Source of the DNA: Armatimonadetes bacterium CG2_30_59_28
GTDB lineage: Bacteria > Armatimonadota > Abditibacteriia > CG2-30-59-28
Assembly: GCA_001872605.1 (NCBI GenBank)
Contig: MNXM01000306.1
Coordinates: forward strand, 6,291 to 70,290
Length of the DNA: 64,000 nucleotides
Direction of reading: 5' to 3'
The notes below the pieces were generated by a model. It did no database searches, was not told the DNA's origin, and worked only from the letters and a program-made list of their open reading frames with translations. The translations under genes were made by a program, and so were the position numbers. Numbering within the stretch: the first letter of the stretch is position 1; every line of letters starts with the position of its first letter. Shown piece by piece: positions 29,584-59,988 of this stretch.

Positions 29584-29589
29584 GGACAG

Positions 29590-31679: not shown

Positions 31680-31686
31680 GCTTTCC

Positions 31687-32463: not shown

Positions 32464-32490
32464 GTTACGGTTCCTCGTCGGAGAGCTCTC

Positions 32491-32829: not shown

Positions 32830-32928
32830 TTTCGCTGGCAGGATATAGGCCAGCGGCCGGCCATCGTGTGAGATCAGTTCAACCGGTATGGGTTCCCACG
32901 CTCCTTACCTGTTGGTTCGTTTCTGCAG

Positions 32929-34062: not shown

Positions 34063-34092
34063 GGCGCTTGTTCTCTTTCTCCTGTTAAATGG

Positions 34093-35394: not shown

Positions 35395-35451
35395 TTGCGC
35401 TACCGATTCTCCTGTGGCGTGGACTCGCGCTGACGCGTTCGTTGGCTTGCT

Positions 35452-37349: not shown

Positions 37350-37406
37350 GAGTGGGCGGCTCAGAGATTCTCCCAGCGAACCATCACGTCTACTCGCGGT
37401 GTCGCT

Positions 37407-37906
37407 TCACTGCACTTCAGCAAATGGCAGGTGGGACATGGATAAAAAGATCGTTTCATCGCTCTGCCGGATGGGATGGTTCCGGCACTCCGCCGGAGTC
37501 ACCGCAGGAATCAGGTCGAGTGCGATGTCATCCCTCAGATAGAAGGCGTTGTAGCCAAACCTATTGGTCCCAACAAGTCGGTAGCCCTTGGTGTTCGCCA
37601 GACTTGTCAGCGCTGGCAACGAGGCTCCGTGGTAGTGGGGATGTTGCGCCGCGTCGTAGCCCCAGTCCGGGTCGTAGGGAACCGTTATGCTGCGCAAGCC
37701 GACTGGATGAATGAGTGGAAGCCCACGCCAGGAATATGCGGCAGAGGCAGTCCATGGTCGATAGGAGCTCGATAATGTGACGCGAACACGGTCTGTTCCA
37801 CTTTGTCCGTGACACTTCTCTGCTCAGCCAATATCGGGCGCATCTCCCGAAGCAGCGGCGCGAGCGCCTTTCGGCACAATTGTTTCACTTTTCGCTTCAT
37901 CAGCAT
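37407..37906 (-). pseudogene. possible frameshifted gene remnant (two adjacent-frame ORFs 37685..37906 and 37407..37697)
   Basis: Two minus-strand ORFs in frames differing by 1 nt overlap at 37685-37697 and together fill the otherwise empty 37350-38036 gap in a tightly packed operon. No confident family assignment. Confidence 0.3.
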
Positions 37907-38036
37907 TTCTCAGAAAGCCGAACAAGCTGCTCATCCATGATGAAATCCTGCCCATCCATGATCCGCTCGCAAAGGAAGTCCACAAATGGGGTCCGCTCCC
38001 GGTAGCAGTGTGCGTGTAGATAGAGCGGCAGCAAGG

Positions 38037-39284: not shown

Positions 39285-39375
39285 CGTGCCATGTCCCAAA
39301 TTCAGTCCCACCTCTCTTTGGCCAGTGAGTTTCTGCGCCGAGGCGTTGTCGCCTTGGAATGCAGGGTTGACCGAA

Positions 39376-42572: not shown

Positions 42573-42588
42573 CGGGGTAGGAGCTGCA

Positions 42589-43986: not shown

Positions 43987-43994
43987 GTCGCCTT

Positions 43995-45155: not shown

Positions 45156-45167
45156 CGTGCTTACTCC

Positions 45168-45734
45168 TTACGCCGTTCCTTCGCCTTGCCAGTGAGCTGC
45201 ATATTCGTTTCCAAGTACGCCAAACTCAAGGATGTCCACGTAGCGGCCGTCCTTGAAAGCTGCCTCGCGTCGGCGTCCTTCTTCCCTCATGCCGAGGTAC
45301 AGGGCCAGACGCTGCATGGTCTCATTGTCCTCAAACGTGCCGCAGTGAACCCGATGGAGGTTGAGAGCATTGAACCCGTGGTCCAGCAGAAGTCGTGCAG
45401 CATCCCTACCGTACCCGTTCCCCCACGCAGTCCTGTCTCCAATCAGAATGGCGAACTCGGCCGACCGGTTCACCCAGTTGATCTCCTGAAGAGCGATATT
45501 GCCGACGTGCCGGTCATCCTCCCGTAGCACGATGGCAAGGACGACGCAATCACGAGACTGCGCAACGCGTCGGACATGCTCAACCGCAGCACCCACGCCA
45601 TACGGGAAGGTGTGATGCGAGTTTCCGCGGCATACTTCCTCATCGTTGAACCACGATGGGTACGGCCCATCACAGTCGCTTTCGCAAAGGGGACGCAGGT
45701 AAACTCTCTCGCCGATGAGAAATGGATTGATCAT
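45168..45734 (-). CDS. GNAT family N-acetyltransferase (PseH/RimL-like)
   Basis: 'HVGNIALQEINWVNRSAEFAILIGDRTAWGNGYGRDAARLL' acetyl-CoA binding motif A. Confidence 0.75.
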   Translation of the reverse strand: MINPFLIGERVYLRPLCESDCDGPYPSWFNDEEVCRGNSHHTFPYGVGAAVEHVRRVAQSRDCVVLAIVLREDDRHVGNIALQEINWVNRSAEFAILIGDRTAWGNGYGRDAARLLLDHGFNALNLHRVHCGTFEDNETMQRLALYLGMREEGRRREAAFKDGRYVDILEFGVLGNEYAAHWQGEGTA

Positions 45735-45746
45735 CTGTCGCCTCCT

Positions 45747-47024
45747 TCAATCCTGCAGTTCGTGCGTGTGCTCAAGCACCTTATCGATGCCTGTGACAAC
45801 ATCCTCCAAATCCTTCGCGGCCAGGCTGGCGTGAACCAAATCCGTAAACATCAGTTCCTCGAGATACATCCGCTCCGTGACCGGGCAAATGCCTTTCTCA
45901 TAGTTCACATTGCCCTCATAGTAGGGTGGCGTAAAGGGACAACCGTTCGCGCCATAGCCGGTGCGACTTTGGTACATGGGTTCCAGATAGATGGGTTTCA
46001 TGTAGCCTTTGTACATCGGGATGCCCTCGGCGTTGAGAGCTTCCACAAAGCGGTCACGGTGCACACCCAGCGCCTGCGCGTCGTAACGGATCGCGAATTC
46101 GTAATAGCCGTGCCGCACGCAGTCCCTGACGACGGGTGGCGTGATACCCCGCAGGTGCTTCAGCCTGTCTCTCAGGAAATCAGCAGCTTCGATGCGCGGG
46201 AGCAGCAACCTCTCCAGCTTTTTCAGTTGCTCCGATGCGATGGCTGCCTCCACTTCTGTCATCCGGTAGTTGAACCCAATCAGATTCGAGATGTCGTCAA
46301 CGCCCTTGTTCCCTACCACTACTTCGCCGTGGTTGCGGATGAGTTGCAGCCGTTCGGCGAACCGGTCGTCGTTGGTGACGACCACGCCACCCTCGCCGCA
46401 TTGTATGGTTTTGTGGCAGTTGAGGCTGAAAACGCCGATATGGGCCAGCGTGCCGGCGAACCGGCCATGGTATTGAGCTCCCGGTGCCTGGGCCGCATCC
46501 TCGATCACGACCAGGTTGTGCTCTGCTGCGAGCGCCATGATTCCATCGAAGTCTGCGGGGTGGCCAAACAGGTCCACCGTAATAATCGCTTTGGTACGAG
46601 GCGACAGCACCTGCCGAATGGTCTCCGGTGTGATACAGAAGGTTTCCGGGTCGATGTCCGCGAAGACGGGCACGGCGTTGTACATTAGCGCGCCGGTCGC
46701 GGAGGCGGTCATCGTGTAGGGAGAGACAATAACCTCATCACCCGGACTGACCCCCGCCGCGCCCACCGCGGCATACAGACCGGACGTCGCGGAGTTCACG
46801 CTAACGGCGTGCCTGACGCCGAAGTACTCTTCCCACTCTCGTTCCAGCTTCCGTACCCTCGGCCCGCCATAGAATTGTGGCGACCAAGTGCCGAGGTAGC
46901 CGGAGAGGACACCGGTGTCCAGCACCTCCATGACGGCACGTTTCTCTTCCTCGCCGATGGTGACGTACCGCGGGAACGGATCGGCTCGCACCGGCTTCCC
47001 GCCACAGAGTGCAAGTTTGGCCAT
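45747..47024 (-). CDS. DegT/DnrJ/EryC1/StrS family sugar aminotransferase
   Basis: 'SATSGLYAAVGAAGVSPGDEVIV'; 'FSLNCHKTIQCGEGG' PLP-Lys; 425 aa. Confidence 0.8.
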   Translation of the reverse strand: MAKLALCGGKPVRADPFPRYVTIGEEEKRAVMEVLDTGVLSGYLGTWSPQFYGGPRVRKLEREWEEYFGVRHAVSVNSATSGLYAAVGAAGVSPGDEVIVSPYTMTASATGALMYNAVPVFADIDPETFCITPETIRQVLSPRTKAIITVDLFGHPADFDGIMALAAEHNLVVIEDAAQAPGAQYHGRFAGTLAHIGVFSLNCHKTIQCGEGGVVVTNDDRFAERLQLIRNHGEVVVGNKGVDDISNLIGFNYRMTEVEAAIASEQLKKLERLLLPRIEAADFLRDRLKHLRGITPPVVRDCVRHGYYEFAIRYDAQALGVHRDRFVEALNAEGIPMYKGYMKPIYLEPMYQSRTGYGANGCPFTPPYYEGNVNYEKGICPVTERMYLEELMFTDLVHASLAAKDLEDVVTGIDKVLEHTHELQD

Positions 47025-47026
47025 CG

Positions 47027-48178
47027 TTAGTGCGCCATTCCATCACAGGTTGAGATCGAGAATACCATTTGGCAGATCAAGTCGACGACGCGACTCGTCG
47101 CGAGGCCGTCTGTCTTGAGGTTCTCGAGGTTCTTCCGCATGGCCGCGCGCGTCTGCTCATTCAGCAGCAGGTTTTCTGTCACGGCCTCAATTTCCTCGGC
47201 AGCATACACCGGACGACTGTAGTCGGAACGGTTGGTGGGCAGCATGTCCGGGCGACGCAAACCAGGCTGCAGACTCAGCGTGACGCAACCAAGATAGCAT
47301 GTCTCGACCAGCAATTCGGTGTTCATGCCGACCACGAGGTCGGCCGCGAGGGCGACGGCGCGCGCTTCACCGTTCGTGGAGACCACAACCGCCACGCGCT
47401 CCCCCTTCATCTCCGTGTATTTGCCCGCGGGTTCGCGAGGGTGAGGTCTGACCGCCAAAACGACTCTGCGCCCGTCCCTCGTTGCGATGCTGTCGAGCGC
47501 ATCCACGAGCATTCTGACCACGCTCTCTTCCGTATACCCCAGGTAGTTGGGATGAGCGGGATCGTCTCCATATAGTTCGGCCAGAGGCTGTGACGCAAAG
47601 AGCACCAGAAGGTCCTCCGGTCCTGCGCCAAGCTGTCGGCGTATGGCCGTTCCAGTCATTTCAGAAAAATTCCTGCGCCACCAGACTAAGTCATCAAACG
47701 CTGGCTGCCCCGTAATCTCCAGCAGGGAGGGAGGAAAGCCTTCCGCAATCATCTCCTCCCGCGCCACTTCGTCCATCACCGCGATTCGGTTAGGCAGATA
47801 GGAGAGGTTACCCTCAGCATCGCTGAATCGTCGGGTGTAGTTCGACCAGAAATCCAGGAGGGCCAGTGAGGCTGTACCCAGTTCGCGCGCCGCGGCGATG
47901 AAGCGCTTCTCCAACTCGACGTCGTTGCATGAGGTGCCCGTGAGTAGAAACGATGCAGTCGCGTTCTCGAGTAACTCTTGCGCGTCCTCGACGGACGTGG
48001 TGTCTAACAACCGCTCATGGGCCCAGCCACGTTTTTCCCAAATGGAGCACGCTTCACGGTAGCCGAACAGTTGCAGCCGCACGACTCCGTGCCACCGGAG
48101 CGCCTGCAACACGGGCAGAACAGCGTTCGCCCCACCGGGATCTCCGCAGACGACAGCGACCGTTGGTGGGTCAGACAT
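47027..48178 (-). CDS. GT-B fold MurG/PseG-like protein (possible UDP-sugar hydrolase of the nonulosonic-acid pathway)
   Basis: N-terminal 'VAVVCGDPGGANAVLPVLQAL' resembles the G-rich loop of GT28/PseG; position between aminotransferase and deacetylase. Confidence 0.35.
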   Translation of the reverse strand: MSDPPTVAVVCGDPGGANAVLPVLQALRWHGVVRLQLFGYREACSIWEKRGWAHERLLDTTSVEDAQELLENATASFLLTGTSCNDVELEKRFIAAARELGTASLALLDFWSNYTRRFSDAEGNLSYLPNRIAVMDEVAREEMIAEGFPPSLLEITGQPAFDDLVWWRRNFSEMTGTAIRRQLGAGPEDLLVLFASQPLAELYGDDPAHPNYLGYTEESVVRMLVDALDSIATRDGRRVVLAVRPHPREPAGKYTEMKGERVAVVVSTNGEARAVALAADLVVGMNTELLVETCYLGCVTLSLQPGLRRPDMLPTNRSDYSRPVYAAEEIEAVTENLLLNEQTRAAMRKNLENLKTDGLATSRVVDLICQMVFSISTCDGMAH

Positions 48179-48863
48179 GAGTGGCTCGCACCCAGCGAAT
48201 CAATTCAAAAGCCTCCGCTGCATCCAGCCCCGACGCGCTGCCCCAACGTCGGGCTTGGGCGCGGATGGACTGCGGCGATCTGGGATGTGGGAAGTCCCGG
48301 GACTCGCTTTCATACACGGCCATTGCCTGGATTTTGGCGTCAAGCGTCGATGCCACATCGACGAACACATTCGGCTTGAAAGCCGGAGCGAAGCTATCGA
48401 AAGCCCACTCGGTGGAGGAGGGGACCTCGTATGCGTACACCGCCTCAACTGTGCAGCCTCGCACGGGACGCGTCGCGGTTAGCGTTGCCCGGAAGGTGAT
48501 CACGTGGTCGATGTTCAGGTCGCCACCGTGCTGCGTGTAAATCACGCGCGGCTGCACACGATCAACCACCGCTTCGATTAGTTTCACAATCTCCAGAAGG
48601 GGCACCGTGTCGAACCGGTTATCGGGAAGATCGTGGATGATCACATTCTGCACGCCAAGCAACTGATTGGTGCTTCGGGCGTTGGCGTGGAGATCTTCGA
48701 GTAGCGCTCCCTCCGCTTCGCTGCGGTTCGCGTAGCGGGATGTCAGCCCCTCACCGAGAATGACAACGTGAACGTCTTCCCCCGCTGCTGTCAGGCGCGC
48801 CATGGTTCCCCCGCATCCGAGGACTTCGTCATCAGGATGTGCGGCGATAATCAGTGTGCTCAT
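48171..48863 (-). CDS. PIG-L/LmbE family N-acetylglucosaminyl deacetylase
   Basis: 'IIAAHPDDEVLGCGGT' zinc-binding motif; 'HGGDLNIDH'. Confidence 0.8.
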   Translation of the reverse strand: MSTLIIAAHPDDEVLGCGGTMARLTAAGEDVHVVILGEGLTSRYANRSEAEGALLEDLHANARSTNQLLGVQNVIIHDLPDNRFDTVPLLEIVKLIEAVVDRVQPRVIYTQHGGDLNIDHVITFRATLTATRPVRGCTVEAVYAYEVPSSTEWAFDSFAPAFKPNVFVDVASTLDAKIQAMAVYESESRDFPHPRSPQSIRAQARRWGSASGLDAAEAFELIRWVRATHV

Positions 48864-49555
48864 TCTGGTCCCTCGGTGGGAGTGATAGTGACATCGGCTT
48901 CAATGCGGCCGTCCAGTAGGGCGGCGCGGTGGAACTCGTACCGAAAACCCGCGTGCTCCAGGAAAGCGCGAGGATAGCCATCGGCATCCAGCATGCGGAT
49001 GAAATCGTGCAGGCGCAGGAGGTTGTTTCCCGGCCCAATCCGGCTCTCATCCGGTGTCCTCCGGGCGAAGGCGACCCCCTCGCCTTCTTGCGGCAGTGGT
49101 TGCGGGTTATGCTCGATGATCTTGCGGATCATCAAAGCCGACAGCCGTGTTGCCCGAATGTAGATTTCCTCGGCGTTACCTTCCAGCGACAGACCTTCCT
49201 TCATGTACACCGGGCCCGCGTCCATTTCAGGAACCATGCGGAGCGCAGTTAGCTTCGTCGAGCGGTGTCCCCGTATGATCAGATTCTGCAACGGACTGCC
49301 GCCGCGTCCGTACGGCACATCCGTCATGTGGAAACAAACACACTCGTAATTCGAGGCAATTTCCTCCGGCACTTTCCATGACCAGTGAAGAAAGAAAACA
49401 TACCGTGGGTTCAGGAGACGCACGGCATCGATTGTGAGTTCTTCAAGCTGTGCGACGAACTCCCATTCACCGGGGTAGGACGAGATCGCTTCGTCAAAGC
49501 ACCGTCGATTCCAGGGCTTGCACCCCGCCACGAGATAAGTTCCTTGCGCAGCCAT
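48860..49555 (-). CDS. formyltransferase-like protein (Fmt/PurN fold)
   Basis: 'CFHMTDVPYGRGGSPLQNLI' (cf. HxSLLPxxRG) and 'TALRMVPEMDAGPVY' (cf. hxxxxxlDxGxI). Confidence 0.5.
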   Translation of the reverse strand: MAAQGTYLVAGCKPWNRRCFDEAISSYPGEWEFVAQLEELTIDAVRLLNPRYVFFLHWSWKVPEEIASNYECVCFHMTDVPYGRGGSPLQNLIIRGHRSTKLTALRMVPEMDAGPVYMKEGLSLEGNAEEIYIRATRLSALMIRKIIEHNPQPLPQEGEGVAFARRTPDESRIGPGNNLLRLHDFIRMLDADGYPRAFLEHAGFRYEFHRAALLDGRIEADVTITPTEGPE

Positions 49556-49557
49556 GA

Positions 49558-50631
49558 TTACTCTGTTTTACCCCCGATCAGGGTCCAACTCAACGGGGTG
49601 CCGCGTGGGGTGTTGCGACTCGCCTTCCGCCCAATCACGTCGTCGAGGTGTCGTGTGTGAAGTCCCACGCCGGGACGTATTGAGCGCACATTATCAAGTG
49701 TGAATGGGTCCCCGGCCTTCATGTCCTGAACGACAAAGAGCGATCGGCGGAAGATGCGACTGCTGACCTCGCGCTCCTGCAAGCCGTAGTTCACCCTCCC
49801 CAATGCCTTCTCGACCGTGCGAATCGACTGCACGATCTCCTTCATCTCCTGCGGTTCGACCGAGAAGGCGCTATCCGGTCCCGTGTCCTTCCGAGAGAGG
49901 GTAAAGTGTTTCTCGACCACACACGCCCCTACGGCCACCGCTGCAGCGGGAACCGCTGTGCCGAGAGTGTGATCGGACAGCCCGACCGGAACGCCGAACG
50001 CGTCAGCCAAGTGAGGCATCGTCCGCAGGTGCATTGCCTCCGGAGGCGCGGGATACGCGCTCGTGCACTTCAGCAGGAGAAGTTGTTCACACCCCGCCTC
50101 CCGGAGTGTGCACACCGACTCGTCAATCTCCGCGAGGGTCGCCATGCCCGTTGACAATATCGCGGGCTTTCCGGTGGAAGCTACCTTCCGCAGCAGCGGC
50201 AGGTCCGTGTTTTCAAAAGAGGCGATCTTGTGTACCCCCACGCCTATCTTCTCGAGAAAGTCGACTGCCGTGCTATCGAACGCAGTGGAGAAACAGTCGA
50301 TGCCGACCTCGTCCGCAACCTGTTTAAGCTTCGGCTGCCACTCCCACGGGGTGAACGCCTCCTTGTAGAGATCGTGCAGGACACGCCCTTGCCAGATCGT
50401 TCCCTTGATTCGGAAAGGCTCGTCGTCGCAGTCGATGGTCATCGTGTCGGGGGTGTAAGTTTGCAGCTTGATGGCGTCTGCGCCTGCCTCCTTGGCTGCT
50501 CTAACGATCTCGACTGCGCGGTCGAAGTCGTGGTTGTGATTGGCCGACATCTCCGCCACGACGTAGACGGGATATCCCGGACCGATGCGACGACCGTTGA
50601 TTTCGATGAAAGGATGCATTTCAGCGACCAT
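49558..50631 (-). CDS. N-acetylneuraminate/pseudaminate/legionaminate synthase family (NeuB/PseI/LegI) with C-terminal SAF domain
   Basis: 'ADAIKLQTY', 'KIASFENTDLPLL', 'GLSDHTLG', SAF domain; GAGGA RBS before ATG 50631 (track start 50736). Confidence 0.85.
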   Translation of the reverse strand: MVAEMHPFIEINGRRIGPGYPVYVVAEMSANHNHDFDRAVEIVRAAKEAGADAIKLQTYTPDTMTIDCDDEPFRIKGTIWQGRVLHDLYKEAFTPWEWQPKLKQVADEVGIDCFSTAFDSTAVDFLEKIGVGVHKIASFENTDLPLLRKVASTGKPAILSTGMATLAEIDESVCTLREAGCEQLLLLKCTSAYPAPPEAMHLRTMPHLADAFGVPVGLSDHTLGTAVPAAAVAVGACVVEKHFTLSRKDTGPDSAFSVEPQEMKEIVQSIRTVEKALGRVNYGLQEREVSSRIFRRSLFVVQDMKAGDPFTLDNVRSIRPGVGLHTRHLDDVIGRKASRNTPRGTPLSWTLIGGKTE

Positions 50632-51415
50632 CCAGTTGATCCTCGTACAGGAGTTGCAGGCGCAGATAGACTTTCCGTCCATTCTCCACGAAGTACGCGC
50701 CCGCATACGGTGGGAACGTTCGGGCGCGCAGAACATTGATCAATTCCCTCGCCCCGTAACTTCGATCTAAGTCAATAGGGTCTATCGTTTCCACGTCACT
50801 TGTTCGGTGGTGCGTCCTCACTGCATTTTCCTGCTTCGTTCTCGGAGCGTGACCGGTGCGCACCAGCGGCCATGCCTCCCGGAACACATCCAGGCAGCAC
50901 TGTTCCAGTTTGTGGTACAGGGACTCCCCAGTATCCGCCGCTTCCACCGGCACTTCGCGCTGGGCGATAATGTCCCCCGTATCGACCCCCGCGTCGACAT
51001 AGTGCAACGTCGCCCCTGCGGGAGTGCCCTCGATGATGCTCCACACGTTCGGGTATTGCCCCCGGTTGTAGGGAAGAAAAGATGGGTGCAGGTTGATACA
51101 GCCTAACGGAAAAAGCTCGAGGAAGTCGGATTGCAGGATGTAGTTGAACAATACTGAAATGCCGAGGTCTGGCCGCAGCGCGCGAATGCTCTGAAGGACG
51201 GGAGGGCTGTTTAGCTCTGATCCGTCGAACACACATTCGGGCGCCAGTGCAGCAGTCTCGGTGATCTCCGCACCGAACTGCTGCTCGTCTTCCGGATGCA
51301 CCACCAGCCCCACGGTGTTGGCGTTCTCGGACTTCAGGTACTTCAGTATCTCCCAGGCGACACGGTTGTTCCCAAGATAGAGAATGCGCGGACTCATGTT
51401 CTCAGGCGCGCCCAA
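50621..51415 (-). CDS. formyltransferase family protein (Fmt-like, N- and C-terminal domains)
   Basis: 'CINLHPSFLPYNRGQYPNVWSI' and 'ATLHYVDAGVDTGDIIAQ' match formyltransferase catalytic motifs. Confidence 0.65.
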   Translation of the reverse strand: MGAPENMSPRILYLGNNRVAWEILKYLKSENANTVGLVVHPEDEQQFGAEITETAALAPECVFDGSELNSPPVLQSIRALRPDLGISVLFNYILQSDFLELFPLGCINLHPSFLPYNRGQYPNVWSIIEGTPAGATLHYVDAGVDTGDIIAQREVPVEAADTGESLYHKLEQCCLDVFREAWPLVRTGHAPRTKQENAVRTHHRTSDVETIDPIDLDRSYGARELINVLRARTFPPYAGAYFVENGRKVYLRLQLLYEDQLDGR

Positions 51416-52121
51416 AATGCTTCAATAACGCCTCGGCGATGACGAAGTCTACCTCGTCGTGCATGTCGATGGCGAGGTCGTCATCTCGAACAACGACACG
51501 GGTGCCGTCACCGGTAAGTCGATCGTGCTCCATCAGCGTGGCTCGGCTGGAGACGTACACATACCCATCTTCTCGGTAGTCGTGTTGCACCCACTGCCGA
51601 TTGGGGCGGCGAAGGTCGAAATGAGGACTGTACGAGCCATCCTCTTCTCTCCTCCAGATCTTGTAGTTGCGTGTGTCCTGGCACACGGTAACCACGTCAC
51701 AGCCAGTATCGAGGAAAATCTGAATGCACTCGTCGATGCAATCGGCGTCCAACAGCGGCGTCGTGGGCTGCAGGGTGACAACCGCGGACACGGGGAAGGC
51801 GTGCTCTTCTTCCATCATGCGAACGGCGTGTTGCAGCACCGGCACCCAGGGGACGGCGTCTCCGCCCAGCTCATCAGGGCGCCTGAAAGGCACTTCCGCC
51901 CCGCACTCTTTGGCGATGGCTGCAATCTCATCATCATCGGTGGAGACAATAACGCGGTCGAGTAAACGCGCCGTGTGGGCGGTACCGATGATGTAATCGA
52001 TCAATGGTCTGTCCAGCAATGGCCGGATGTTCTTCCGCGGCAATCCCTTCGATCCTCCGCGCGCGGGGATGACGCCAAGGACACCGCCGGCGGAAGAACG
52101 GGCTGGTTGTTCAGTGCTCAT
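51402..52121 (-). CDS. acylneuraminate cytidylyltransferase family (CMP-nonulosonic acid synthetase, NeuA/PseF/LegF-like)
   Basis: 'GVIPARGGSKGLPRKNIRPLLDRPLIDYII' N-terminal CTP-binding motif. Confidence 0.8.
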   Translation of the reverse strand: MSTEQPARSSAGGVLGVIPARGGSKGLPRKNIRPLLDRPLIDYIIGTAHTARLLDRVIVSTDDDEIAAIAKECGAEVPFRRPDELGGDAVPWVPVLQHAVRMMEEEHAFPVSAVVTLQPTTPLLDADCIDECIQIFLDTGCDVVTVCQDTRNYKIWRREEDGSYSPHFDLRRPNRQWVQHDYREDGYVYVSSRATLMEHDRLTGDGTRVVVRDDDLAIDMHDEVDFVIAEALLKHFGRA

Positions 52122-52133
52122 ATTGCAGGCTCC

Positions 52134-53333
52134 TCAATGGGTGCGATGCCGATTCAGGATTTCGCCAACTGTTGTCACAACGCGGTCCACGTCTCCATCC
52201 TGCATCGCCGGGAAGAGCGGCAAGGTGATGATGCGTTCGTAGGCGGCCTCGGCCACGGGACACTGGCCGGGGCGCGTGCCGTAGCGTTCCTGATAGTAGG
52301 GATGCAGGTGAACGGGGATGTAGTGGACGTTGACTCCAATGCCCTTGTTGCGCAGCTCCGCGAAGATGGTCTGTCGGTCCGCTGTGACTCGAGACAAATC
52401 CAGCTGCACGACATACAGATGGTAAGCATGGGACACTTCCGGCGCTACCACGAGTGGTTCCACTTCGGGCACGGACGCAAAGGCTTCGTTGTACCGGGCA
52501 GCGATTGCTTGCCGTCGCCGCACCCACTGCGGCAGCTTGCGAAGCTGGCTGAGGCCCAGCGCGCATTGGAAATCGGTGATGCGGTAGTTGTAGCCGAGGT
52601 CGACCATCTCGTAGAACCAGGAGCCCTGCTGCTCTCTCTGGCGGTGATCGGTGGTGATGCCGTGGTTGCGGAAGGTGCGCGCCCGTGAGGCAAACTTCGG
52701 GTTGCTTGTCGCGACCACGCCCCCCTCCCCTGTCGTTATAGCTTTGACTGGATGGAGGCTGAACGTACTGATATCCGCCAAACTACCCACGGGGCGCCCA
52801 CGATAGCTTCCGCCGAGAGCGTGGCAGGCGTCCGCCACGAGTCGAAGATTGTGCTTCTGGGAAATCGCACTCAGAGCGTCATAGTCGCAGGGCTGGCCCG
52901 CATAGTCCACGGCGATGATGGCTTTCGTTTTTTCCGTTACCCGGCTTGCCACGTCTTCGGCGTCGAGCAGCAGCGTGTGCTCGTCAACATCCGCGACGAC
53001 CGGCGTGCCGCCCTGAAACGCCACGCAGTTTGCGGTCGCTGCAAAGGTGATGGCGGGGATGATGACCTCACCCCCTGCCCCGATGCCGATGGCATACATG
53101 GCGCAGTGCAAAGCCGCAGTGCCGTTGCACACGGCGACCGCGTGGTCGGCGTCCACGAATTCAGCGAAGCGTTGCTCAAACTCAGGAACCTTCGGACCGG
53201 TGGTGAGCCAAGCGGAGCGGAGCGCCGCAACGACAGCGTCGATGTCGTCTTCGTCGATGCACTGACGACCGTAAGGCAATGGTGAGGGATTTTCCGATGT
53301 GTTCTGTTCAGCCACTCGACTACTCCTGATCAA
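52134..53333 (-). CDS. pseC: UDP-4-amino-4,6-dideoxy-N-acetyl-hexosamine transaminase (PseC-type DegT aminotransferase)
   Basis: 'LPYGRQCIDEDDIDAVVAALRSAWLTTGPKVPEFEQ' is the characteristic PseC N-terminus; 'FSLHPVKAITTGEGG' PLP-Lys. Confidence 0.7.
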   Translation of the reverse strand: MIRSSRVAEQNTSENPSPLPYGRQCIDEDDIDAVVAALRSAWLTTGPKVPEFEQRFAEFVDADHAVAVCNGTAALHCAMYAIGIGAGGEVIIPAITFAATANCVAFQGGTPVVADVDEHTLLLDAEDVASRVTEKTKAIIAVDYAGQPCDYDALSAISQKHNLRLVADACHALGGSYRGRPVGSLADISTFSLHPVKAITTGEGGVVATSNPKFASRARTFRNHGITTDHRQREQQGSWFYEMVDLGYNYRITDFQCALGLSQLRKLPQWVRRRQAIAARYNEAFASVPEVEPLVVAPEVSHAYHLYVVQLDLSRVTADRQTIFAELRNKGIGVNVHYIPVHLHPYYQERYGTRPGQCPVAEAAYERIITLPLFPAMQDGDVDRVVTTVGEILNRHRTH

Positions 53334-54312
53334 GAAGCTCTCTCAGCTCCTCCACGCTCAGCCACTCCGTGTTAGCGTCGCTGGTATAGGCAAAGCCTTC
53401 GGGAAGGGGCTTGCTGTCCGGCCATTGGGGTTGCTCCCACCACGGATGGGTGGGAGTCACCACAAATCTGTCCTCAAACTCAAAGGAATTGCGCGCTTCG
53501 TCTTCCGAGATCAATGCCTCGTGCAGTTTCTCTCCCGGTCGGATGCCAATGAACTCGACATCGATGTCGGACGCGATGGCCGCCACCAGGTCCATCATTC
53601 GCATACTGGGTATCTTAGGGACGAAGACTTCACCACCGTGCATCAGCTCGATGCAACGGATGACAAAGTTCACGCCGTAATTCAGCGTTAGCCAGAAGCG
53701 CGTCATACGCTTGTCAGTGACGGTGAGGGTTCCCGTCTCGCGCTGTTTCAGGAACAAAGGAACAACGCTGCCGCGGCTGCCCACCACGTTGCCGTACCGG
53801 CAACAAGAAAGGCGAGTGCCACTTCCTGCCGCGTAGGCATTCCCTTGGATGAACATCTTCTCCGCGCACAGCTTGGTGGCGCCATACAGATTTACGGGGT
53901 TCACTGCTTTATCGGTGCTGATCGCCATGACCTTTTCCACGCCGCAGTCGATGGCGCTTTCGATGACATTCTGTGTGCCGAGAATGTTCGTCTTCACCGC
54001 CTCAAACGGGTTGTATTCACAAGCAGGCACCTGCTTCAGCGCCGCTGCGTGAACAACGATGTCCACTCCGGCCATCGCTCGACGCAACCGCTCTCCGTCT
54101 CGCACGTCGCCGATAAAGTAGCGCAGGTTGGGGCGGTCGAATCCTCCGGTGCGCATCTCGTGCTGTTTCAACTCGTCTCGGCTAAAGACAATGAGTCTCT
54201 TCGGTGAGTGATTCTTCAACTGCGTCGCGATGAATTTTCTCCCGAAAGATCCGGTCCCCCCTGTGACGAGCACCGATTTCTCTGACCAGTTGACACTTTC
54301 AGGCATACTCAT
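53320..54312 (-). CDS. pseB: UDP-N-acetylglucosamine 4,6-dehydratase (PseB/FlaA1/CapD-type, Polysacc_synt_2)
   Basis: 'LVTGGTGSFGRKF', 'IVFSRDELKQHEM', 'HAAALKQVPACEYNPFEAVKTNILGTQNVI', 'STDKAVNPVNLYGATKLCAEKMF', 'YGNVVGSRGSVVPLF'. ATGA overlap with the wzt stop supports a start at 54312. Confidence 0.85.
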   Translation of the reverse strand: MSMPESVNWSEKSVLVTGGTGSFGRKFIATQLKNHSPKRLIVFSRDELKQHEMRTGGFDRPNLRYFIGDVRDGERLRRAMAGVDIVVHAAALKQVPACEYNPFEAVKTNILGTQNVIESAIDCGVEKVMAISTDKAVNPVNLYGATKLCAEKMFIQGNAYAAGSGTRLSCCRYGNVVGSRGSVVPLFLKQRETGTLTVTDKRMTRFWLTLNYGVNFVIRCIELMHGGEVFVPKIPSMRMMDLVAAIASDIDVEFIGIRPGEKLHEALISEDEARNSFEFEDRFVVTPTHPWWEQPQWPDSKPLPEGFAYTSDANTEWLSVEELRELLDQE

Positions 54313-55646
54313 TGGCTCCATCCCTCGGGATTGCGCACCTGTTCGGTTCGCTCGACCTGCCACGGTATGGGGACTGCGATCACGCCACCGCGGTTGGACT
54401 TGGTAACATAGGACAGGAAGGATAGTTCGTCCTTGATCTCAACATAAATCCCTCTCCGGGTATCAATTCGCTCGGGTCCCACAGTTAAGGCCAGTTCGAG
54501 TTCGTAAGTTCCGTGGTTCAGCAGTGGGGTGGGAATCTCGAAGGAAGCGTGGTAACGGCCTGCGCTTCGCGGGAACTGGTCCTGCATGGTTTCGCCAATG
54601 TAGTTGTCCCAGTCTGAGTCTTGGGACACCAGGGCGCGGATGTTCTCTTGCGTCCAGACCTCCACGAACAATATCAAGGTCGGGAAATCCCGATGAAGCT
54701 CAAAATCCATTTCCACCCGGATGGGGTCGAGTACTCCGTGGCGAAGGCACAGGGAACCCGCTGAGTTCAGCACTCTGACCGCGAGGATTTGCCCTTCCAT
54801 CGACTGCCTTTTCTCGTAAACAAATGCGGCATTTTCCGGTTTGGACTCTTCATCCATCGACGCTCTGTAGGCTTCAATCACGGCGGTTGGCTTGCCATCT
54901 CTCCGCAGGGCACCTCCGTCCAGCAGGATCGCTCTATTGCAGAGCGCCTCCACGGCCTTCAGGTTGTGGCTTACGAAAAACACGGTTCGGCCACCCGTTG
55001 CCACCTCTCTCATCTTGCCGAGGCATTTTCGCTGAAAGGACATGTCCCCAACGGAGAGGACTTCATCCACTACCAGGATTTCCGGTTCCAGGTGAGCGGC
55101 GACGGCGAAGGCGAGGCGGACAAACATGCCGCTGGAGTATCGCTTGACCGGAGTATCGAGGAACTTCTGTATTTCGGCAAAACTCACGATCGCGCCGAAG
55201 CGTCGCTCGATTTCCCTCTTCTTCATGCCAAGAATTGCGCCGTTGAGGTAAATGTTCTCTCGTCCCGTTAATTCGGGGTGGAACCCGGTGCCCACTTCGA
55301 GAAGGCTCGCAACGCGTCCTCGGAGTCTGACCTCCCCTTCTGTTGGCTCAGTGATGCGTGAAAGAATCTTGAGCAAGGTGCTCTTACCGGCCCCGTTGCG
55401 GCCAATGACACCGACAACTTCTCCCTGCTCAACCTCGAAAGAAACGCCCTTCAAGGCCCAGATTGTGTCTACGCCAACTCGCTCTTCGTTGCCATTCCGT
55501 GAGCCGCCAAAGCGCGCGGCCAGATTGCGAAACGGTGTTGCCGCAGCATCGACGATCGCTTCACGAATTGTCTTGTAGGGCGCCTCCGCTTTTCCAATGC
55601 GGTAGCGTTTGCCGAGATTCTCAACTTGAATGATGGAGTCTGACAT
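54309..55646 (-). CDS. wzt: polysaccharide ABC transporter ATP-binding protein Wzt with ~170-aa C-terminal beta-sandwich (Wzt_C-like) extension
   Basis: Walker A 'GRNGAGKST', ABC signature 'YSSGMFVRLAFA', Walker B 'ILVVDE'; extra C-terminal domain beyond the NBD. Start at Met 55646 leaves a 9-bp gap to wzm. Confidence 0.85.
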   Translation of the reverse strand: MSDSIIQVENLGKRYRIGKAEAPYKTIREAIVDAAATPFRNLAARFGGSRNGNEERVGVDTIWALKGVSFEVEQGEVVGVIGRNGAGKSTLLKILSRITEPTEGEVRLRGRVASLLEVGTGFHPELTGRENIYLNGAILGMKKREIERRFGAIVSFAEIQKFLDTPVKRYSSGMFVRLAFAVAAHLEPEILVVDEVLSVGDMSFQRKCLGKMREVATGGRTVFFVSHNLKAVEALCNRAILLDGGALRRDGKPTAVIEAYRASMDEESKPENAAFVYEKRQSMEGQILAVRVLNSAGSLCLRHGVLDPIRVEMDFELHRDFPTLILFVEVWTQENIRALVSQDSDWDNYIGETMQDQFPRSAGRYHASFEIPTPLLNHGTYELELALTVGPERIDTRRGIYVEIKDELSFLSYVTKSNRGGVIAVPIPWQVERTEQVRNPEGWSQ

Positions 55647-55654: not shown

Positions 55655-56509
55655 CTACACCACGTCGGCGAAGGTTCGCTCCATTCGTCGGAAATAGACC
55701 GCGCCACTTATCAGAATCAGGAGACTCAGGAAGGCAGCCAGCCCCAATGGAAACCACTGGAAGGGGCGATTGAGGAGCGCGGACCGATAGCCTTCCAGCA
55801 GCCCTGCCATCGGGTTAAGGATTGCCATTACGCGGTATTTCGCTGGTAGAAATGACAACTGATAGAAGACCGGCGATGCAAACATCCAGAGCTGAATCAG
55901 GAAGGGGATCGCATACCGGATATCACGATACTGAACATTCAGTGCCGACAACCACAATCCCATGCCCAAGGCCAGAACCATGGTCAGGACGACGAGGAGG
56001 GGAACCATCAAAGCCCCCGCTCCAGGCACGATGTGATAGTAGAAACACAGACCAAGGAGGACGATGAACGCCAGGACAAGGTCGAGCAACCCGGAGAGCA
56101 CCGCAGACCCCGGCACGATGAGGCGCGGGAAGTAGACTTTCGTGATCAGGTTGGCGCTCCCGACAAGGCTGTTTCCCGACTGAGTGACGGCATTGGAGAA
56201 GAACGTCCATGGTACAACCGCACAAAAGTTGAAAAGGGGATACGGAACTCCCGCCGGCGCAATGCCTCTTGTGCGCCCCAGAATAAGCGAGAACACGATC
56301 ATCGTGGCAACCGGCTGAATGATCGCCCAGGTGCCTCCGATCAGGGTCTGCTTGTACCGCACCTTGATATCCCGCCAGGTGAGAAAATACAGCAGCTCGC
56401 GGTACTCCCACAACTCACTCAGGTTGATGGAGGAAAGGCCCGTGGATGGTCTGATGAGCAGCCACGGTAGAGGACCTCCTTCTGCATGTTTGAGGGAATC
56501 CGTGGGCAT
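55655..56509 (-). CDS. wzm: ABC-2 type polysaccharide export permease Wzm
   Basis: 6 TM helices; 'LWEYRELLYFLTWRDIKVRYKQT' is the typical ABC-2 N-terminal motif. Confidence 0.85.
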   Translation of the reverse strand: MPTDSLKHAEGGPLPWLLIRPSTGLSSINLSELWEYRELLYFLTWRDIKVRYKQTLIGGTWAIIQPVATMIVFSLILGRTRGIAPAGVPYPLFNFCAVVPWTFFSNAVTQSGNSLVGSANLITKVYFPRLIVPGSAVLSGLLDLVLAFIVLLGLCFYYHIVPGAGALMVPLLVVLTMVLALGMGLWLSALNVQYRDIRYAIPFLIQLWMFASPVFYQLSFLPAKYRVMAILNPMAGLLEGYRSALLNRPFQWFPLGLAAFLSLLILISGAVYFRRMERTFADVV

Positions 56510-56796: not shown

Positions 56797-59700
56797 TTAC
56801 CGCACATCAACCTGCACCTCAAGCGGATTGGAGCCTTTTTCGGCAAACCAGATGAGGTCGCCCTGGATCAAATCCCACTTCAGCGTGTAATCCCCCGGCG
56901 TCTCCGGCGCCTGAATCCTCGCAACGACGTCCACTGTATCGCCCTTTGAGACCGATGTCGAAAGGTTAGTCAGCAGCCCCTTGGTTACCACTGTCCTCCC
57001 GCTGCCGGAAAGCCATCGGTAGCTCAGTTGCACCGGCAAGGGGCCACCGGATTCCCACCGCAGCGCCCCGGTATTCTGGATGCGTATACGCACCGTGTAG
57101 GTCTGGCCGGCAACCTGCGTCTTGGGGCTGTCGTGACTGAGAAATTTCGCCAGGTACAGGCTGTCGACCGCCACGGGTATGTTCACCGTCGATGCGCCGC
57201 GGTTGCTGAACCATCCCTGGCCTTCCTGGAACAGGTCCCATTTCAGCGTGTAGACCCCGGGCATATCGGGAGCGCGCGTTTGGGCGTTAAGTGTCACTTC
57301 CTCCCCGAGGCTGACCGGGCGCTGCAAATCGGTGAGAATGGGCAGGCTCTCGACGTTGTTCCCCGATTCGTCGATCCAGTGGTATCCCAGCTTCACGGGA
57401 TTTCTCCCGCCCAGCGCCCAAGTGAGGGTCCCGGTGTTCCGTATCGAGATCGAGACAGTGTAAAGCTGACCGACAATCATGTTGTTCGGATGGCTGCGCG
57501 CCGTGAAAGTAGCCGCATAGGAGGGGCGCGCCACGATCACTCCTACGTCAAGGGGTCGAGATCCCTGAGTGGAGAACCACAGTGAATTTCCCTGCACCAG
57601 GTCCCACTGAAGGGTGTAGGTGCCGGGAACCACGGGCGATTGAACCTGAGCGACGACCCCGGCGGAGCGTCCCGGATCAACGTCGTATGGCAATGAGGTG
57701 AGTGCGCCGCCGGGCTGACTCGTCGGGATGGAGACCGTGTTCCCCTGGTCATCGATCCAGCGATACCCAACCCCGATGGCGTTGGGCCCCTGATAGTACC
57801 ACTTCATGGATCCCGTGTTCTTCAGCCTCAAGTTGGCGATGTAGATTTCTCCCGGAGTCATGCTCGAGGGAATGACGCGCTCCTCATATTCCACTCCATA
57901 CAAACTGACCACCGTCACCGGAGCCTCGAGACTTGTCGCGCCCATATCGGAGAACCATGTGTTGCCTCCGAGGCGCAGATCCCATCGCAGCACGTATTTT
58001 CCCTGGACATCGGGAGCGCGAACGCGCGCATCCACTTTGACTTCAGTCCCAGAGGGCACAACCGCGGGAACTGCTGTGATCAGGGGCGGATCGTCGAGTG
58101 GGGTTCCGTCCATGTTGTACCAGTGATAGCCCATGCCCACCGGCTGCTCCCCCGTGCCCTGCCAGGAAGTGGCTCCGGTGTTCCGGATGGTCACTTCCAC
58201 CGTGTATTGTTGGCTCGGGGTCATTCGTTCGGGCGTCCGCCCCCCGATGAACATGACACTGTAGGGCATTTCCACATTCACGCCCACGCGAATGGGCGAG
58301 GTATTACGCTGAGAAAACCAGAGCAGCTCTCCCTGGCGGAGGTCCCATTCCAGGATGTACTTCCCTTGTTCCGCCGGCGCTCTCACCTGCGCCTGCACAA
58401 CGGCCTGCTCCTCATAGTTGACCGGCACCGGCAACGGCGACTTCAGGCCGTGGGTAATTCGGCCCTTGTCGTCAATCCACCGATAGGAGATCTGCACAGC
58501 GTTGTTGCCGCTGTTCAGCCAGGTCATGGTACCGACATTGCGGAGGGTCAAATCAACGGTGTAGACTTGACTGCCGATCATCGTCGTGGGCGTGTTGTGC
58601 TGCAGGTACTCGACTCCGAAATCGCTGAGCAGCTTCACTTGCCGTGTTGCGAACGCCGTATCCTCTTCCTCGTCGGTTGCAGCTACCCGAAGCGTGTATA
58701 CCCCGGAAAGGCCGGATGTGTCCCAGCGCGCCAGCAGCCCGTCCTGAACCGGTGCGGTGATATTTTCCCGGATGGATACCCACTCGCTCGGGTTCTCGCC
58801 GACCCCATAGTCAACGCGTCCGGATTTAAGCGTGCCCGTTGCCGCGTTCAGGGAACCCAGGATGTCAACAATGCCCTGCACTCGCGCATCCGCCGGCGGG
58901 TGTGAGATGACGGCAACCGGCGGTTGCCGCCGCAGTTGCAGGACGAAGACGTCTTGATTGTTGTGCAGCGCCGCGTCAAAAACGATGCTGTCTCCCTGCG
59001 GAGACCAATCGGGAGATGAAACGCTGCCGCCGGCCGCGGGTGCCTCGCGAGCCGCCCCGCCCCCGCGACTGGCAAACCACAGCTCGCGACGACTATCGCG
59101 TTGCATCACGCCCACGAGTTTGGATCCGTTCGGGGACCACGACGGTTGCTCAAGCCCCCTAACGACGGAGTTTGGCTCGCCTCCGGTGCAGGGAATGACC
59201 CACGTTCCCCCCTTCCCCGGCTGCAGCGAAAAGTAGGCGATTATGCTGCCATCCGGAGACCAACTTGGGTCCCATGCGCCTGTCACCAGCAGTCGCGGGT
59301 TGCTGCCGTCAGACTGCATGACCCACAGGCTATCGGCGCCGTTCCTGTCGGAAACGAAGGCGATCTGCGACCCATCGGGCGACCAAGTGGGCATCCAATC
59401 GATGCTCTCGTTGTCTGTCAACTGGAGCTGCGTCGCGCGCTCCAAGTCTATAATCCATATATCCGGGTTGCCTCGACTCCCGCGATTGCTCGCGCAAGCG
59501 ATTCTCTTCCCATCCGGAGACCATGCAGGATCGTCGTAGAACTGGAAAGGCGACAAGGCTGCGGTGAGGCGATATGGATCTGTTCCGTCCGCATTCATGA
59601 TCCAGAGGTCTTTGTTCCCCTGGCGACCGGACACGAAGACGACCTTGGTCCCGTCGGGCGAGAATGAAGGTTTGGCGTCGGTTTCACGCTCGCGCGTCAG

Positions 59701-59832
59701 TGGGGACACGCGACCAACCGAATAGGCCGCCATCGAGATGGAAGTGAGCGAAAACAGCAGAAGCACTGCGGCAGGCACGGCAAAGCGCAGACGCGCGCCG
59801 GCTGTCGAACTGGTTGAGTTCGATCGATTCAT
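56797..59832 (-). CDS. large secreted protein: signal peptide, TolB-like beta-propeller (PD40 repeats), then six tandem ~100-aa Ig-like repeats
   Basis: Signal peptide 'MNRSNSTSSTAGARLRFAVPAAVLLLFSLTSISMAA' (GAAAGG RBS before ATG 59832). Repeated 'SWSPDGS' propeller blades. Six repeats share 'Y.V...RNTG...W......V.LGYHW.D..G......P......G.Y.L.WDL.QG...WF'. Confidence 0.7.
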   Translation of the reverse strand: MNRSNSTSSTAGARLRFAVPAAVLLLFSLTSISMAAYSVGRVSPLTRERETDAKPSFSPDGTKVVFVSGRQGNKDLWIMNADGTDPYRLTAALSPFQFYDDPAWSPDGKRIACASNRGSRGNPDIWIIDLERATQLQLTDNESIDWMPTWSPDGSQIAFVSDRNGADSLWVMQSDGSNPRLLVTGAWDPSWSPDGSIIAYFSLQPGKGGTWVIPCTGGEPNSVVRGLEQPSWSPNGSKLVGVMQRDSRRELWFASRGGGAAREAPAAGGSVSSPDWSPQGDSIVFDAALHNNQDVFVLQLRRQPPVAVISHPPADARVQGIVDILGSLNAATGTLKSGRVDYGVGENPSEWVSIRENITAPVQDGLLARWDTSGLSGVYTLRVAATDEEEDTAFATRQVKLLSDFGVEYLQHNTPTTMIGSQVYTVDLTLRNVGTMTWLNSGNNAVQISYRWIDDKGRITHGLKSPLPVPVNYEEQAVVQAQVRAPAEQGKYILEWDLRQGELLWFSQRNTSPIRVGVNVEMPYSVMFIGGRTPERMTPSQQYTVEVTIRNTGATSWQGTGEQPVGMGYHWYNMDGTPLDDPPLITAVPAVVPSGTEVKVDARVRAPDVQGKYVLRWDLRLGGNTWFSDMGATSLEAPVTVVSLYGVEYEERVIPSSMTPGEIYIANLRLKNTGSMKWYYQGPNAIGVGYRWIDDQGNTVSIPTSQPGGALTSLPYDVDPGRSAGVVAQVQSPVVPGTYTLQWDLVQGNSLWFSTQGSRPLDVGVIVARPSYAATFTARSHPNNMIVGQLYTVSISIRNTGTLTWALGGRNPVKLGYHWIDESGNNVESLPILTDLQRPVSLGEEVTLNAQTRAPDMPGVYTLKWDLFQEGQGWFSNRGASTVNIPVAVDSLYLAKFLSHDSPKTQVAGQTYTVRIRIQNTGALRWESGGPLPVQLSYRWLSGSGRTVVTKGLLTNLSTSVSKGDTVDVVARIQAPETPGDYTLKWDLIQGDLIWFAEKGSNPLEVQVDVR

Positions 59833-59942
59833 GGCGAGGCCTTTCTGATAGCGGGAGCGGCATACGGGGCAACACTGGGCCGTCACCCGTCGTATAGCCC
59901 TAACTCCAAAGTCTGAGGTGGTATTCTACACGATAGGGAAGT

Positions 59943-59988
59943 GAACGTCAACGTAAACAAGGATCGCGCGAGTGTCACGGACGTTGAC
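59943..59988. promoter_or_regulatory. inverted repeat (GTCAACGT ... ACGTTGAC) in the divergent intergenic region between the surface-protein gene and the GT-C gene
   Basis: gaacgtcaacgt(59943-59954) ... gtcacggacgttgac(59974-59988); candidate operator. Confidence 0.3.

Follow-up and report, generated by a model that had tools for sequence, protein, structure and literature searches.

Armatimonadota are diderm Terrabacteria without Pal, and the connections between wall polymers, outer membrane and glycan export in this phylum are barely known. The DNA stretch analysed here (the window, 64,000 nucleotides (nt) of Armatimonadetes bacterium CG2_30_59_28, contig MNXM01000306.1) contains a large cluster of envelope-glycan genes, and the gene at the head of this cluster encodes an exported protein with a TolB-type beta-propeller and a row of immunoglobulin (Ig)-like modules. 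This raises the question what kind of protein this is and why it is encoded next to glycan genes. The initial annotation, which was made from the sequence alone, suggested either the glycosylated cell-surface protein itself or a polysaccharide-binding anchor, built from a repeat that might be undescribed. The repeat turned out to belong to the FW family of the eukaryotic autophagy receptor NBR1, and we tentatively favour a role of the protein as an envelope adaptor. The repeat family, the TolB-like propeller and the arrangement of a protein beside a glycan cluster were already known; only the domain combination and its restriction to Armatimonadota are new.

A predicted exported protein without catalytic domain

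The gene is located on the minus strand at 56797-59832 and encodes 1011 aa from an ATG start (MNRSN...). Counted from the first GTG, the uninterrupted open reading frame (ORF) covers 56797..59886. The ATG at 59832 is supported by the three closest orthologues, which have the same length of 1011 aa and begin at the corresponding ATG, and the protein of about 1000 aa that was initially annotated is a real single long ORF. P0001 is one residue apart from the window protein (M522V), while P0002 and P0003 are 78% and 67% identical, respectively. Codon 522 (58267-58269, minus) encodes Met in the window and Val in otherwise identical copies from JGI (3300008010) and ENA (ERZ27293378). M522V is a single-residue population variant at the boundary of repeats 1 and 2.

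A signal peptide is predicted at the N-terminus (59725..59832, minus; aa 1-36, predicted cleavage after SMA|A). The only hydrophobic segment of the protein is found here (aa 11-40). Among orthologues the signal segment diverges (31-36% identity), whereas every other segment is 63-83% identical. The divergent segment ends with an AXA-like site, immediately followed by a conserved AYSVGRV. In the full-length AlphaFold2 (AF2) model aa 1-35 are disordered, with a predicted local distance difference test (pLDDT) score below 50. Hydrophobicity, divergence, the AXA-like site and disorder together point to a cleaved Sec signal, as had been proposed from the sequence. A lipobox Cys, a second transmembrane segment or a C-terminal sorting signal was not present in the 1011-aa protein. 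The predicted mature protein has 975 residues, a mass of ~107 kDa, an isoelectric point (pI) of 5.2 and 2 Cys. Purifying selection extends along the whole protein length, each module being 63-83% conserved in close orthologues. No catalytic family was matched in Pfam or NCBIfam, and no Poly_export or Wzz-type domain was matched in Pfam. Unlike the outer membrane polysaccharide export and polysaccharide co-polymerase (OPX/PCP) accessory proteins, for example KpsD/KpsE and Wza/Wzc, the window protein lacks both their domains and their transmembrane anchors. As predicted from its sequence, it is a Sec-exported, modular protein without a catalytic domain.

The propeller is of TolB type, the protein is not TolB

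The signal peptide is followed by a six-bladed PD40 (TolB-type) beta-propeller (58927..59724, minus; aa 37-302). Pfam PD40 matched over aa ~50-300 with E = 1e-37, and six blade motifs ('[PA]x[WF]SP[DNQ]G') occur at a spacing of 41-47 aa. The AF2 model has ~24 strands within aa 37-302. In Foldseek searches, TolB (1C5K/2HQS) superposed at 2.0 Å root-mean-square deviation over 239 columns at 26% identity. PDB sequences that matched the propeller were TolB propellers only (E about 6e-21), covering TolB residues ~180-410. Family match, blade motifs and superposition agree with the propeller described in the initial annotation. Thousands of PD40 matches cover only the N-terminal quarter of the window protein.

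The closest solved relatives of the propeller are TolB structures and the best NCBIfam match is TolB as well, which might suggest that the protein is the TolB of this organism, partnering Pal in a Tol-Pal system. We consider this possibility very remote, and TolB proper is effectively excluded. Membership was rejected because the NCBIfam score of 183.3 bits is under the equivalog cut-off of 343.15, because the TolB_N alpha/beta domain had no Pfam match in the protein, the alignments being limited to the propeller of TolB, and because there is no tol-pal context: neither tolQRA nor pal genes were found among the scanned ORFs of the window. Moreover, Terrabacteria are reported to lack Pal, and in Armatimonadetes the outer membrane is tethered via OmpM and secondary cell-wall polymers (bioRxiv 10.1101/2021.05.31.446380). 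The window protein thus resembles TolB in that a signal peptide precedes a six-bladed PD40 propeller, but it lacks the N-terminal domain, carries six extra Ig-like modules and lies outside a tol-pal context. A further likeness is to the COG0823-type PD40 proteins of Acidobacteriota, Armatimonadota and Chloroflexota ('Tol biopolymer transport system component'), in which an exported PD40 propeller is likewise combined with other extracytoplasmic modules. These pair the propeller with kinases, winged helix-turn-helix (wHTH) domains or proteases, whereas the window protein pairs it with FW repeats.

Five FW repeats and an unrelated Ig-like linker

The rest of the protein comprises a linker module (58621..58926, minus; aa 303-404) and five FW (NBR1-like, PF16158) repeats, all on the minus strand: repeat 1 at 58267..58620 (aa 405-522), repeat 2 at 57904..58266 (aa 523-643), repeat 3 at 57523..57903 (aa 644-770, with a variable inserted loop at ~aa 701-712), repeat 4 at 57157..57522 (aa 771-892) and repeat 5 at 56800..57156 (aa 893-1011), which forms the C-terminal end. 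The five repeats of 118-127 aa are homologous and 33-43% identical to one another. Pairwise BLASTP comparisons among them yielded E = 1e-21 to 4e-34 (70-101 bits), compared to 20.8 bits for the best of 100 shuffles. The linker is an eight-stranded all-beta (Ig-like) module in the AF2 model (pLDDT 79-91). It is unrelated to the repeats, since BLASTP gave no high-scoring segment pair with any of them and a forced alignment reached 18% identity. It is 63-75% conserved among close orthologues and was also detected in distant ones. The six repeats of ~100 aa that had been noted initially are therefore five true repeats of ~120 aa, and the count of six Ig-like modules holds at the level of the fold only.

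The repeat is not an undescribed or unassignable module, as the initial annotation had it. Pfam PF16158 (N_BRCA1_IG, the NBR1 FW domain) matched in five stretches and scored 108.7 bits (cut-off 28; E = 2.8e-31). When 15 repeats, taken from three orthologues, were aligned, 19 columns proved invariant, and exactly four of these are Trp (W34, W48, W92 and W101). Four tryptophans are the signature after which the FW domain is named (PMC9582228, PMC9233695), and they have been described as core residues of the fold (PMC3357945). The motifs quoted initially were recovered as the consensus of the 15 aligned repeats (IxNTG...W, GYRWxD and GxYTLxWDLxQG..WF). When the repeat profile was compared with PDB sequences, human NBR1 (4OLE, E = 3e-4) and ILRUN (6VHI, E = 0.039) were the sole meaningful matches.

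The AF2 model of a single repeat (repeat 1) is all-beta with a pLDDT of 95.7. In Foldseek searches with this model, 4OLE and 6VHI ranked within the top 15 with template modelling (TM) scores (TMq) of 0.60 and 0.59, and other E-set domains (GH3 Fn3-like, NPC2 and CARDB; TM about 0.6) scored equally. The beta-sandwich or Ig-like fold expected from the spacing of the aromatic residues agrees with these results. No family of carbohydrate-binding modules (CBMs) was matched in Pfam, where the repeats hit just N_BRCA1_IG and, weakly, CARDB, and no CBM-specific match stood out among the generic E-set matches of the single-repeat model. By hidden Markov model (HMM) the repeat is assigned to PF16158; NBR1 and CARDB are among its fold matches, where no CBM family stands out. 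A full-length fold search was uninformative beyond TolB, returning generic multi-Ig proteins (alpha-2-macroglobulin, complement, mastigoneme) at TM < 0.2.

The above-threshold Pfam match, the four invariant Trp and the Ig-like beta-sandwich are common to the repeats and the FW domains of NBR1 and ILRUN; with 4OLE the repeats share only about 16% of their residues. In the eukaryotic examples a single copy is carried by a cytosolic autophagy receptor, in contrast to the five tandem copies of a Sec-exported bacterial protein. Eukaryotic FW domains bind MAP1B, TAX1BP1 and the N-terminal peptide of Ams1 (PMC9233695, PMC9582228); a peptide in the beta1/beta6 pocket is known solely for CtNbr1-Ams1 of C. 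thermophilum (PMC9233695). The literature on bacterial FW domains covers just the single-copy XRE-FW regulators (PMC3357945), which differ from the exported five-copy array. The function of the domain is called enigmatic even in eukaryotes, and none has been reported for bacterial FW domains (PMC3357945, PMC9233695).

Two repeats have features of their own. Repeat 5 is the sole basic module (pI 9.1; best Pfam stretch 908-995) and shows the strongest position-specific conservation across orthologues. Repeat 3 contains an extra Ser/Thr/Pro/Gly-rich loop, SIPTSQPGGALT (aa 701-712; 57697-57732, minus), which the other repeats lack. The loop varies among close orthologues, has low pLDDT at aa 704-708 and is the only low-complexity, potentially modifiable segment of the mature protein.

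The FW module is common, and the nearest arrays are often fused to peptidoglycan hydrolases

An exhaustive HMMER search of the repeat profile against 1.84 billion cluster representatives matched 12,268 proteins at E <= 1e-3, of which 473 reached E <= 1e-30. The FW module is therefore common. Arrays reach 14 copies, and most of the listed N-termini resemble signal peptides by eye. PF16158 was matched by 54 of 61 other FW-array proteins. As partner domains, these 61 proteins contain Amidase_2 (8), SpoIID (7), Peptidase_S8 (5), Amidase_3 (2), YkuD (1) and Polysacc_deac_1 (1), and some carry lectin-type modules (F5/8 type C, CBM_4_9, NPCBM_assoc).

Fusions were counted in 135 FW-only loci from genomes and metagenomes, mostly Chloroflexota. 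These loci were selected by similarity to the array of the window protein and represent its nearest relatives, not all FW proteins. Only catalytic-core queries that are not matched by the FW HMM were used, and the core had to lie in the same ORF; this strict count was adopted because a looser one could be inflated by Ig-like query segments. The loci contain 227 ORFs with at least three FW repeats, and 161 of these have an Amidase_2 or SpoIID core. In 87 ORFs an Amidase_2 core is N-terminal to a 5-6-copy array, in 74 a SpoIID core is C-terminal to a mostly 4-copy array. The array is always located at the non-catalytic end of the hydrolase fusions. These hydrolases are the closest non-orthologous matches of the window array, with tandem arrays of the FW family and of similar length. 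They possess a peptidoglycan-cleaving domain where the window protein has a non-enzymatic propeller, and wall binding by their arrays is itself presumptive. As far as we could find, the link between exported FW arrays and cell-wall enzymes appears unremarked in the searchable literature.

In 50 loci (L017-L079, L094-L163; mostly Chloroflexota / Ca. Limnocylindria) both an Amidase_2-FW(5-6) and an FW(mostly 4)-SpoIID gene are present. Such a pair of peptidoglycan-degrading enzymes with a common non-catalytic array is reminiscent of SpoIID/SpoIIP, a pairing familiar from sporulation.

The full architecture is confined to Armatimonadota

The combination of PD40 and FW repeats is rare and was found in 8 of the best 150 profile matches. 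More distant orthologues (P0125-P0128 and P0136; 34-43% identical, ~1000 aa) all keep PD40, linker and five FW repeats. Across orthologues the repeats pair by position, repeat 5 always with repeat 5. From the positional pairing and the shared copy number it follows that the five-copy array is old and conserved in length. Where full-length orthologues were found in species genomes, these were all metagenome-assembled genomes of Armatimonadota (three of Ca. Thermosaccharophagus, two of Fimbriimonadaceae and two unclassified). On sequence evidence the protein belongs to a small orthologous family that is confined to Armatimonadota and has a fixed count of five repeats. For annotation we suggest the name 'PD40 propeller / FW-repeat exported protein', rather than TolB or 'novel repeat'.

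Glycan-assembly genes follow the gene in most genomes

In the window, the PD40/FW gene heads a ~42 kb co-directional cluster (59886 -> 17926). It is followed 287 nt downstream by a Wzm-type ABC-2 permease gene (55655..56509, minus; Pfam ABC2_membrane, E = 5e-19) and a Wzt-type ABC ATPase gene (54309..55646, minus; ABC_tran, E = 6e-23; Wzt_C, E = 4e-4, below cut-off). The position of the gene at the head of a surface-glycan locus, as described initially, was thereby corroborated. Wzt has a length of 445 aa according to the gene call of a related locus (L003), and Wzt_C is present in the homologue of locus L002. The 287-nt gap contains no terminator-like site, and it folds no better than shuffled sequences (z = -0.06). 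A candidate sigma-70-like promoter (59923..59951, minus; TTGACG-17-TAGAAT), a consensus match only with 10/12 positions matched, is located ~90 nt upstream of the ATG. No tRNA or Rfam family was found near the gene.

The neighbourhood was compared in 11 assessable distinct genomes. Locus L001, which encodes the 78% orthologue, was excluded, as it ends 454 nt past the stop without the start of a Wzm gene. Glycan-assembly genes are directly downstream of the orthologue in 7 of the 11 genomes. Clade A comprises the window and L002, where Wzm/Wzt are directly downstream and the other glycan genes differ. Wzm and Wzt of L002 are 48% and 45% identical to those of the window and occupy the same position; the PD40/FW protein is 67% identical, its FW repeats 65-75%. 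The glycan pathways of the two are different, one being of the nonulosonic-acid type and the other of a methyl- or carbamoyl-modified type. In clade B (L007=L014, L016, L092 and L009; Fimbriimonadaceae-type) the genes after the orthologue encode a membrane protein without annotation, two GT-C enzymes of the PMT_2 type, and a flippase. The next gene overlaps the orthologue by 4 nt in L007, which indicates an operon, and is separated from it by 18 nt in L009. In L005=L087 the orthologue is followed by GT2, GT4, LPG_synthase_TM, DUF2079, methyltransferase, Bac_transf and GT9 genes. The distal GT4-GT2-DUF2079-methyltransferase block of the window (24527->17932) is syntenic with these genes at 34-51% identity.

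Two further observations concern the flanks of orthologues. A homologous class-I S-adenosylmethionine methyltransferase of ~220-256 aa is encoded directly upstream and co-directionally in six distinct genomes (L005/L087, L006=L011=L091, L012, L013, L084 and L010), and in L010 it overlaps the start of the orthologue by 22 nt. It is absent from this position in the window clade and in the Fimbriimonadaceae clade. In L006 (14856-18672), a Ca. Thermosaccharophagus-type locus, the region 4-7 kb downstream encodes a TPR protein of 904 aa together with an ExbB/ExbD (TolQ/TolR-like) pair. For this locus, such neighbours are suggestive in view of the TolB-like propeller.

A possible envelope adaptor

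What might the protein do? Tentatively, and without calling it probable, we favour a non-catalytic periplasmic or envelope adaptor, in which the FW array would be attached to the wall, the propeller would bind a peptide or protein, and the whole would be tied to glycan assembly. Sec export without further signals in a diderm organism would place the protein in the periplasm. Among the well-studied autolysins and endolysins, wall-targeting repeats (LysM, SH3b, SLH, choline-binding) take up the non-catalytic end. FW arrays at hydrolase ends have the position usual for such repeats, from which we infer that the FW rod may be attached to a conserved polymer of the cell wall or envelope. A conserved rather than a variable ligand is suggested by the higher conservation of the protein compared to Wzm and Wzt. 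The anchor role proposed in the initial annotation finds indirect support in the nearest FW arrays, those fused to peptidoglycan hydrolases. The TolB propeller binds Pal and TolB-box peptides, and the propeller of the window protein might likewise serve as a peptide- or protein-binding platform. With Pal reported absent from Terrabacteria, its partner would have to be something other than Pal. That operonic linkage recurs with differing kinds of glycan-assembly genes suggests joint action of the protein and this machinery, and the linkage in 7 of 11 genomes supports some functional tie. The protein would be co-expressed with genes for glycan assembly and export (Wzm/Wzt here, GT-C enzymes and a flippase in relatives) and may position or scaffold this machinery relative to the wall, being itself neither enzyme nor transporter.

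A more far-reaching version of the adaptor reading, in which tandem FW domains are a widespread, hitherto unnoticed bacterial cell-wall-targeting module and the protein serves a phylum without Pal as single-chain functional analogue of TolB-Pal, appears unlikely to us. If it were true, a six-module rod of fixed length would tether the TolB-type propeller to the wall and so couple the assembly or export of envelope glycans to the cell wall. The enigmatic FW domain of NBR1 would then have an ancestral bacterial function. That FW arrays strongly co-occur with peptidoglycan hydrolases, and in the present family with operons for glycan assembly, provides a testable hypothesis for the role of bacterial FW domains.

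Several points weigh against the adaptor reading. The wall-binding role of FW arrays is presumed by guilt by association, and Ig-like arrays in exoenzymes can be mere spacers. Across the 287-nt gap, co-transcription with Wzm is presumptive. In the four Thermosaccharophagus-type genomes (clade C) the neighbours are not glycan genes, a methyltransferase being encoded upstream and an HtrA-like protease downstream, and the linkage is therefore not universal. The adjacency of a conserved gene to a variable glycan locus could be positional and not functional. Finally, the sole characterised FW ligands are proteins or peptides of the eukaryotic cytosol (PMC9233695, PMC9582228).

Alternative explanations

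Some of these points also fit an adaptor of the periplasm that binds proteins, for instance in envelope proteostasis or signalling, is unrelated to glycans and flanks a variable glycan island incidentally. PD40 propellers are common extracytoplasmic ligand-binding domains, found fused to kinases, wHTH regulators, sigma factors and proteases, and characterised FW domains bind proteins (PMC9233695). The flanks of the 4 clade C genomes among the 11, the 287-nt gap together with a promoter-like site of its own, and a conservation above that of the adjoining glycan genes, as expected for a flanking core gene, are all consistent with an incidental neighbourhood. We nevertheless regard it as rather improbable, since 3 of 4 orthologue clades independently keep glycan-assembly genes, of differing types, directly downstream and the 4-nt overlap in L007 indicates an operon. 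The same gene order could be explained if the protein were the acceptor of the glycan, that is, an S-layer-type or envelope glycoprotein modified with the product of the adjacent cluster after its export by Wzm/Wzt or a flippase. There is a precedent in the S-layer genes sgsE and sgtA, which adjoin Wzm/Wzt-dependent slg clusters and the products of which receive a methyl-capped glycan transferred by WsaB (PMC2943079). Like sgsE of Geobacillus stearothermophilus NRS 2004/3a, the window gene encodes a large exported, structural-type protein and heads a Wzm/Wzt cluster that contains methyltransferases (PMC2943079); its orthologues in relatives show translational coupling to GT-C genes of the PMT/PMT_2 family. 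The protein is conserved while the glycan locus varies, and its acidic pI, 2 Cys, size of ~107 kDa and multi-Ig architecture would suit an acceptor. The window protein has no sequence relation to SgsE, no SLH-type anchor or other known anchoring domain matched in Pfam or NCBIfam, and a diderm host, with no signal for crossing the outer membrane. A transferase of the GT-C or ligase type would have to attach the glycan outside the membrane. We regard this acceptor role, the main rival of the adaptor reading, as likewise rather improbable. No WsaB-like transferase was detected and no Wzy_C or O-antigen-ligase-type transferase was found in the scanned cluster ORFs; two adjacent polytopic membrane proteins (564 and 825 aa) lack a firm family, and PMT_2 enzymes modify lipids and glycans besides proteins. 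Glycosylation-prone Ser/Thr/Pro-rich linkers are absent, the maximum being 9 of 20 residues in one variable loop, and no glycan gene directly flanks the orthologue in the Thermosaccharophagus-type clade.

The repeats might also be lectin-like modules specific for the polysaccharide of the locus, with the protein as anchor for that glycan. This we judge to be quite unlikely, although the beta-sandwich fold is common to many CBMs, aromatic residues are conserved, the gene adjoins glycan export genes and some other FW-array proteins contain the lectin-type modules mentioned above. The conserved Trp have been described as fold core (PMC3357945), known FW ligands are peptides (PMC9233695), and no CBM family was matched by sequence or stood out by fold. 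A specific lectin should co-vary with its ligand; the repeats remain 65-75% identical between the window and L002 despite their differing glycan pathways, and the protein is more conserved than the variable glycan genes, which argues against a lectin tuned to a variable glycan. The initial annotation had itself held that a match to a well-characterised Ig family with no carbohydrate role would speak against its carbohydrate reading, and this reading is weakened because every FW ligand characterised to date is a protein or peptide (PMC9233695, PMC9582228) and no CBM family was matched.

The glycan cluster and other features of the window

The rest of the co-directional envelope-glycan cluster occupies 17926..54363 (minus). 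Judged by its predicted genes, the locus is an ABC-transporter-dependent cluster of the nonulosonic-acid type. The nonulosonic-acid set comprises a PseB-like dehydratase, DegT aminotransferases (PseC-like), a CMP-transferase, NeuB, formyltransferase-type genes and PIG-L. Further genes encode a WbuX amidotransferase (43995-45155), a sulfotransferase (36408-37349), GT2, GT4 and GT9 glycosyltransferases, PMT_2, DUF2079 and methyltransferases. At 48860-51415 (minus) an N-formyltransferase (Formyl_trans_N and N_formyltrans_C) is accompanied by a second ORF with the formyltransferase C-terminal domain only. This hints at an N-formylated nonulosonic acid.

Divergently from the PD40/FW gene, two polytopic membrane proteins are encoded at 59997-61763 (+) and 61763-64000+ (+). 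The former (564/588 aa) and AUJ92_19880 from Armatimonadetes bacterium CG2_30_59_28 are 100% identical, which points to this bacterium, or to a near-identical population, as the source of the window. An origin in Planctomycetota, suggested by an N_methyl/DUF1559 neighbour, was rejected on account of this identity and of the Armatimonadota affiliation of all full-length orthologues. Its family has 115 homologues, every organism name given being Armatimonadota, and no Pfam or NCBIfam assignment. The latter (825 aa) gave a sub-threshold YfhO (GT-C) match only (E = 1.5e-5). Neither protein is conserved next to orthologues. The 564-aa protein was rejected as a conserved partner, as its family is absent from all orthologue loci; HMM comparison likewise showed no relation between it and the membrane proteins encoded after the orthologues of L007 and L009.

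Several long ORFs of the window overlap by several hundred bases, namely 38037-40181 / 39376-40878 and 40875-43163 / 42589-43986 on the minus strand and 10731-12164 / 11782-13770 on the plus strand. They encode a GT4 protein, a capsule-synthesis-like protein, an amidase and a VanW/PG_binding_4/G5 protein, and their first-start coordinates are probably too long. An unusual architecture was found at 9298-10626 (+), where a 442-aa ORF joins a C-terminal GGDEF diguanylate-cyclase domain, the domain of c-di-GMP synthases, to sigma-70 regions 2, 3 and 4.

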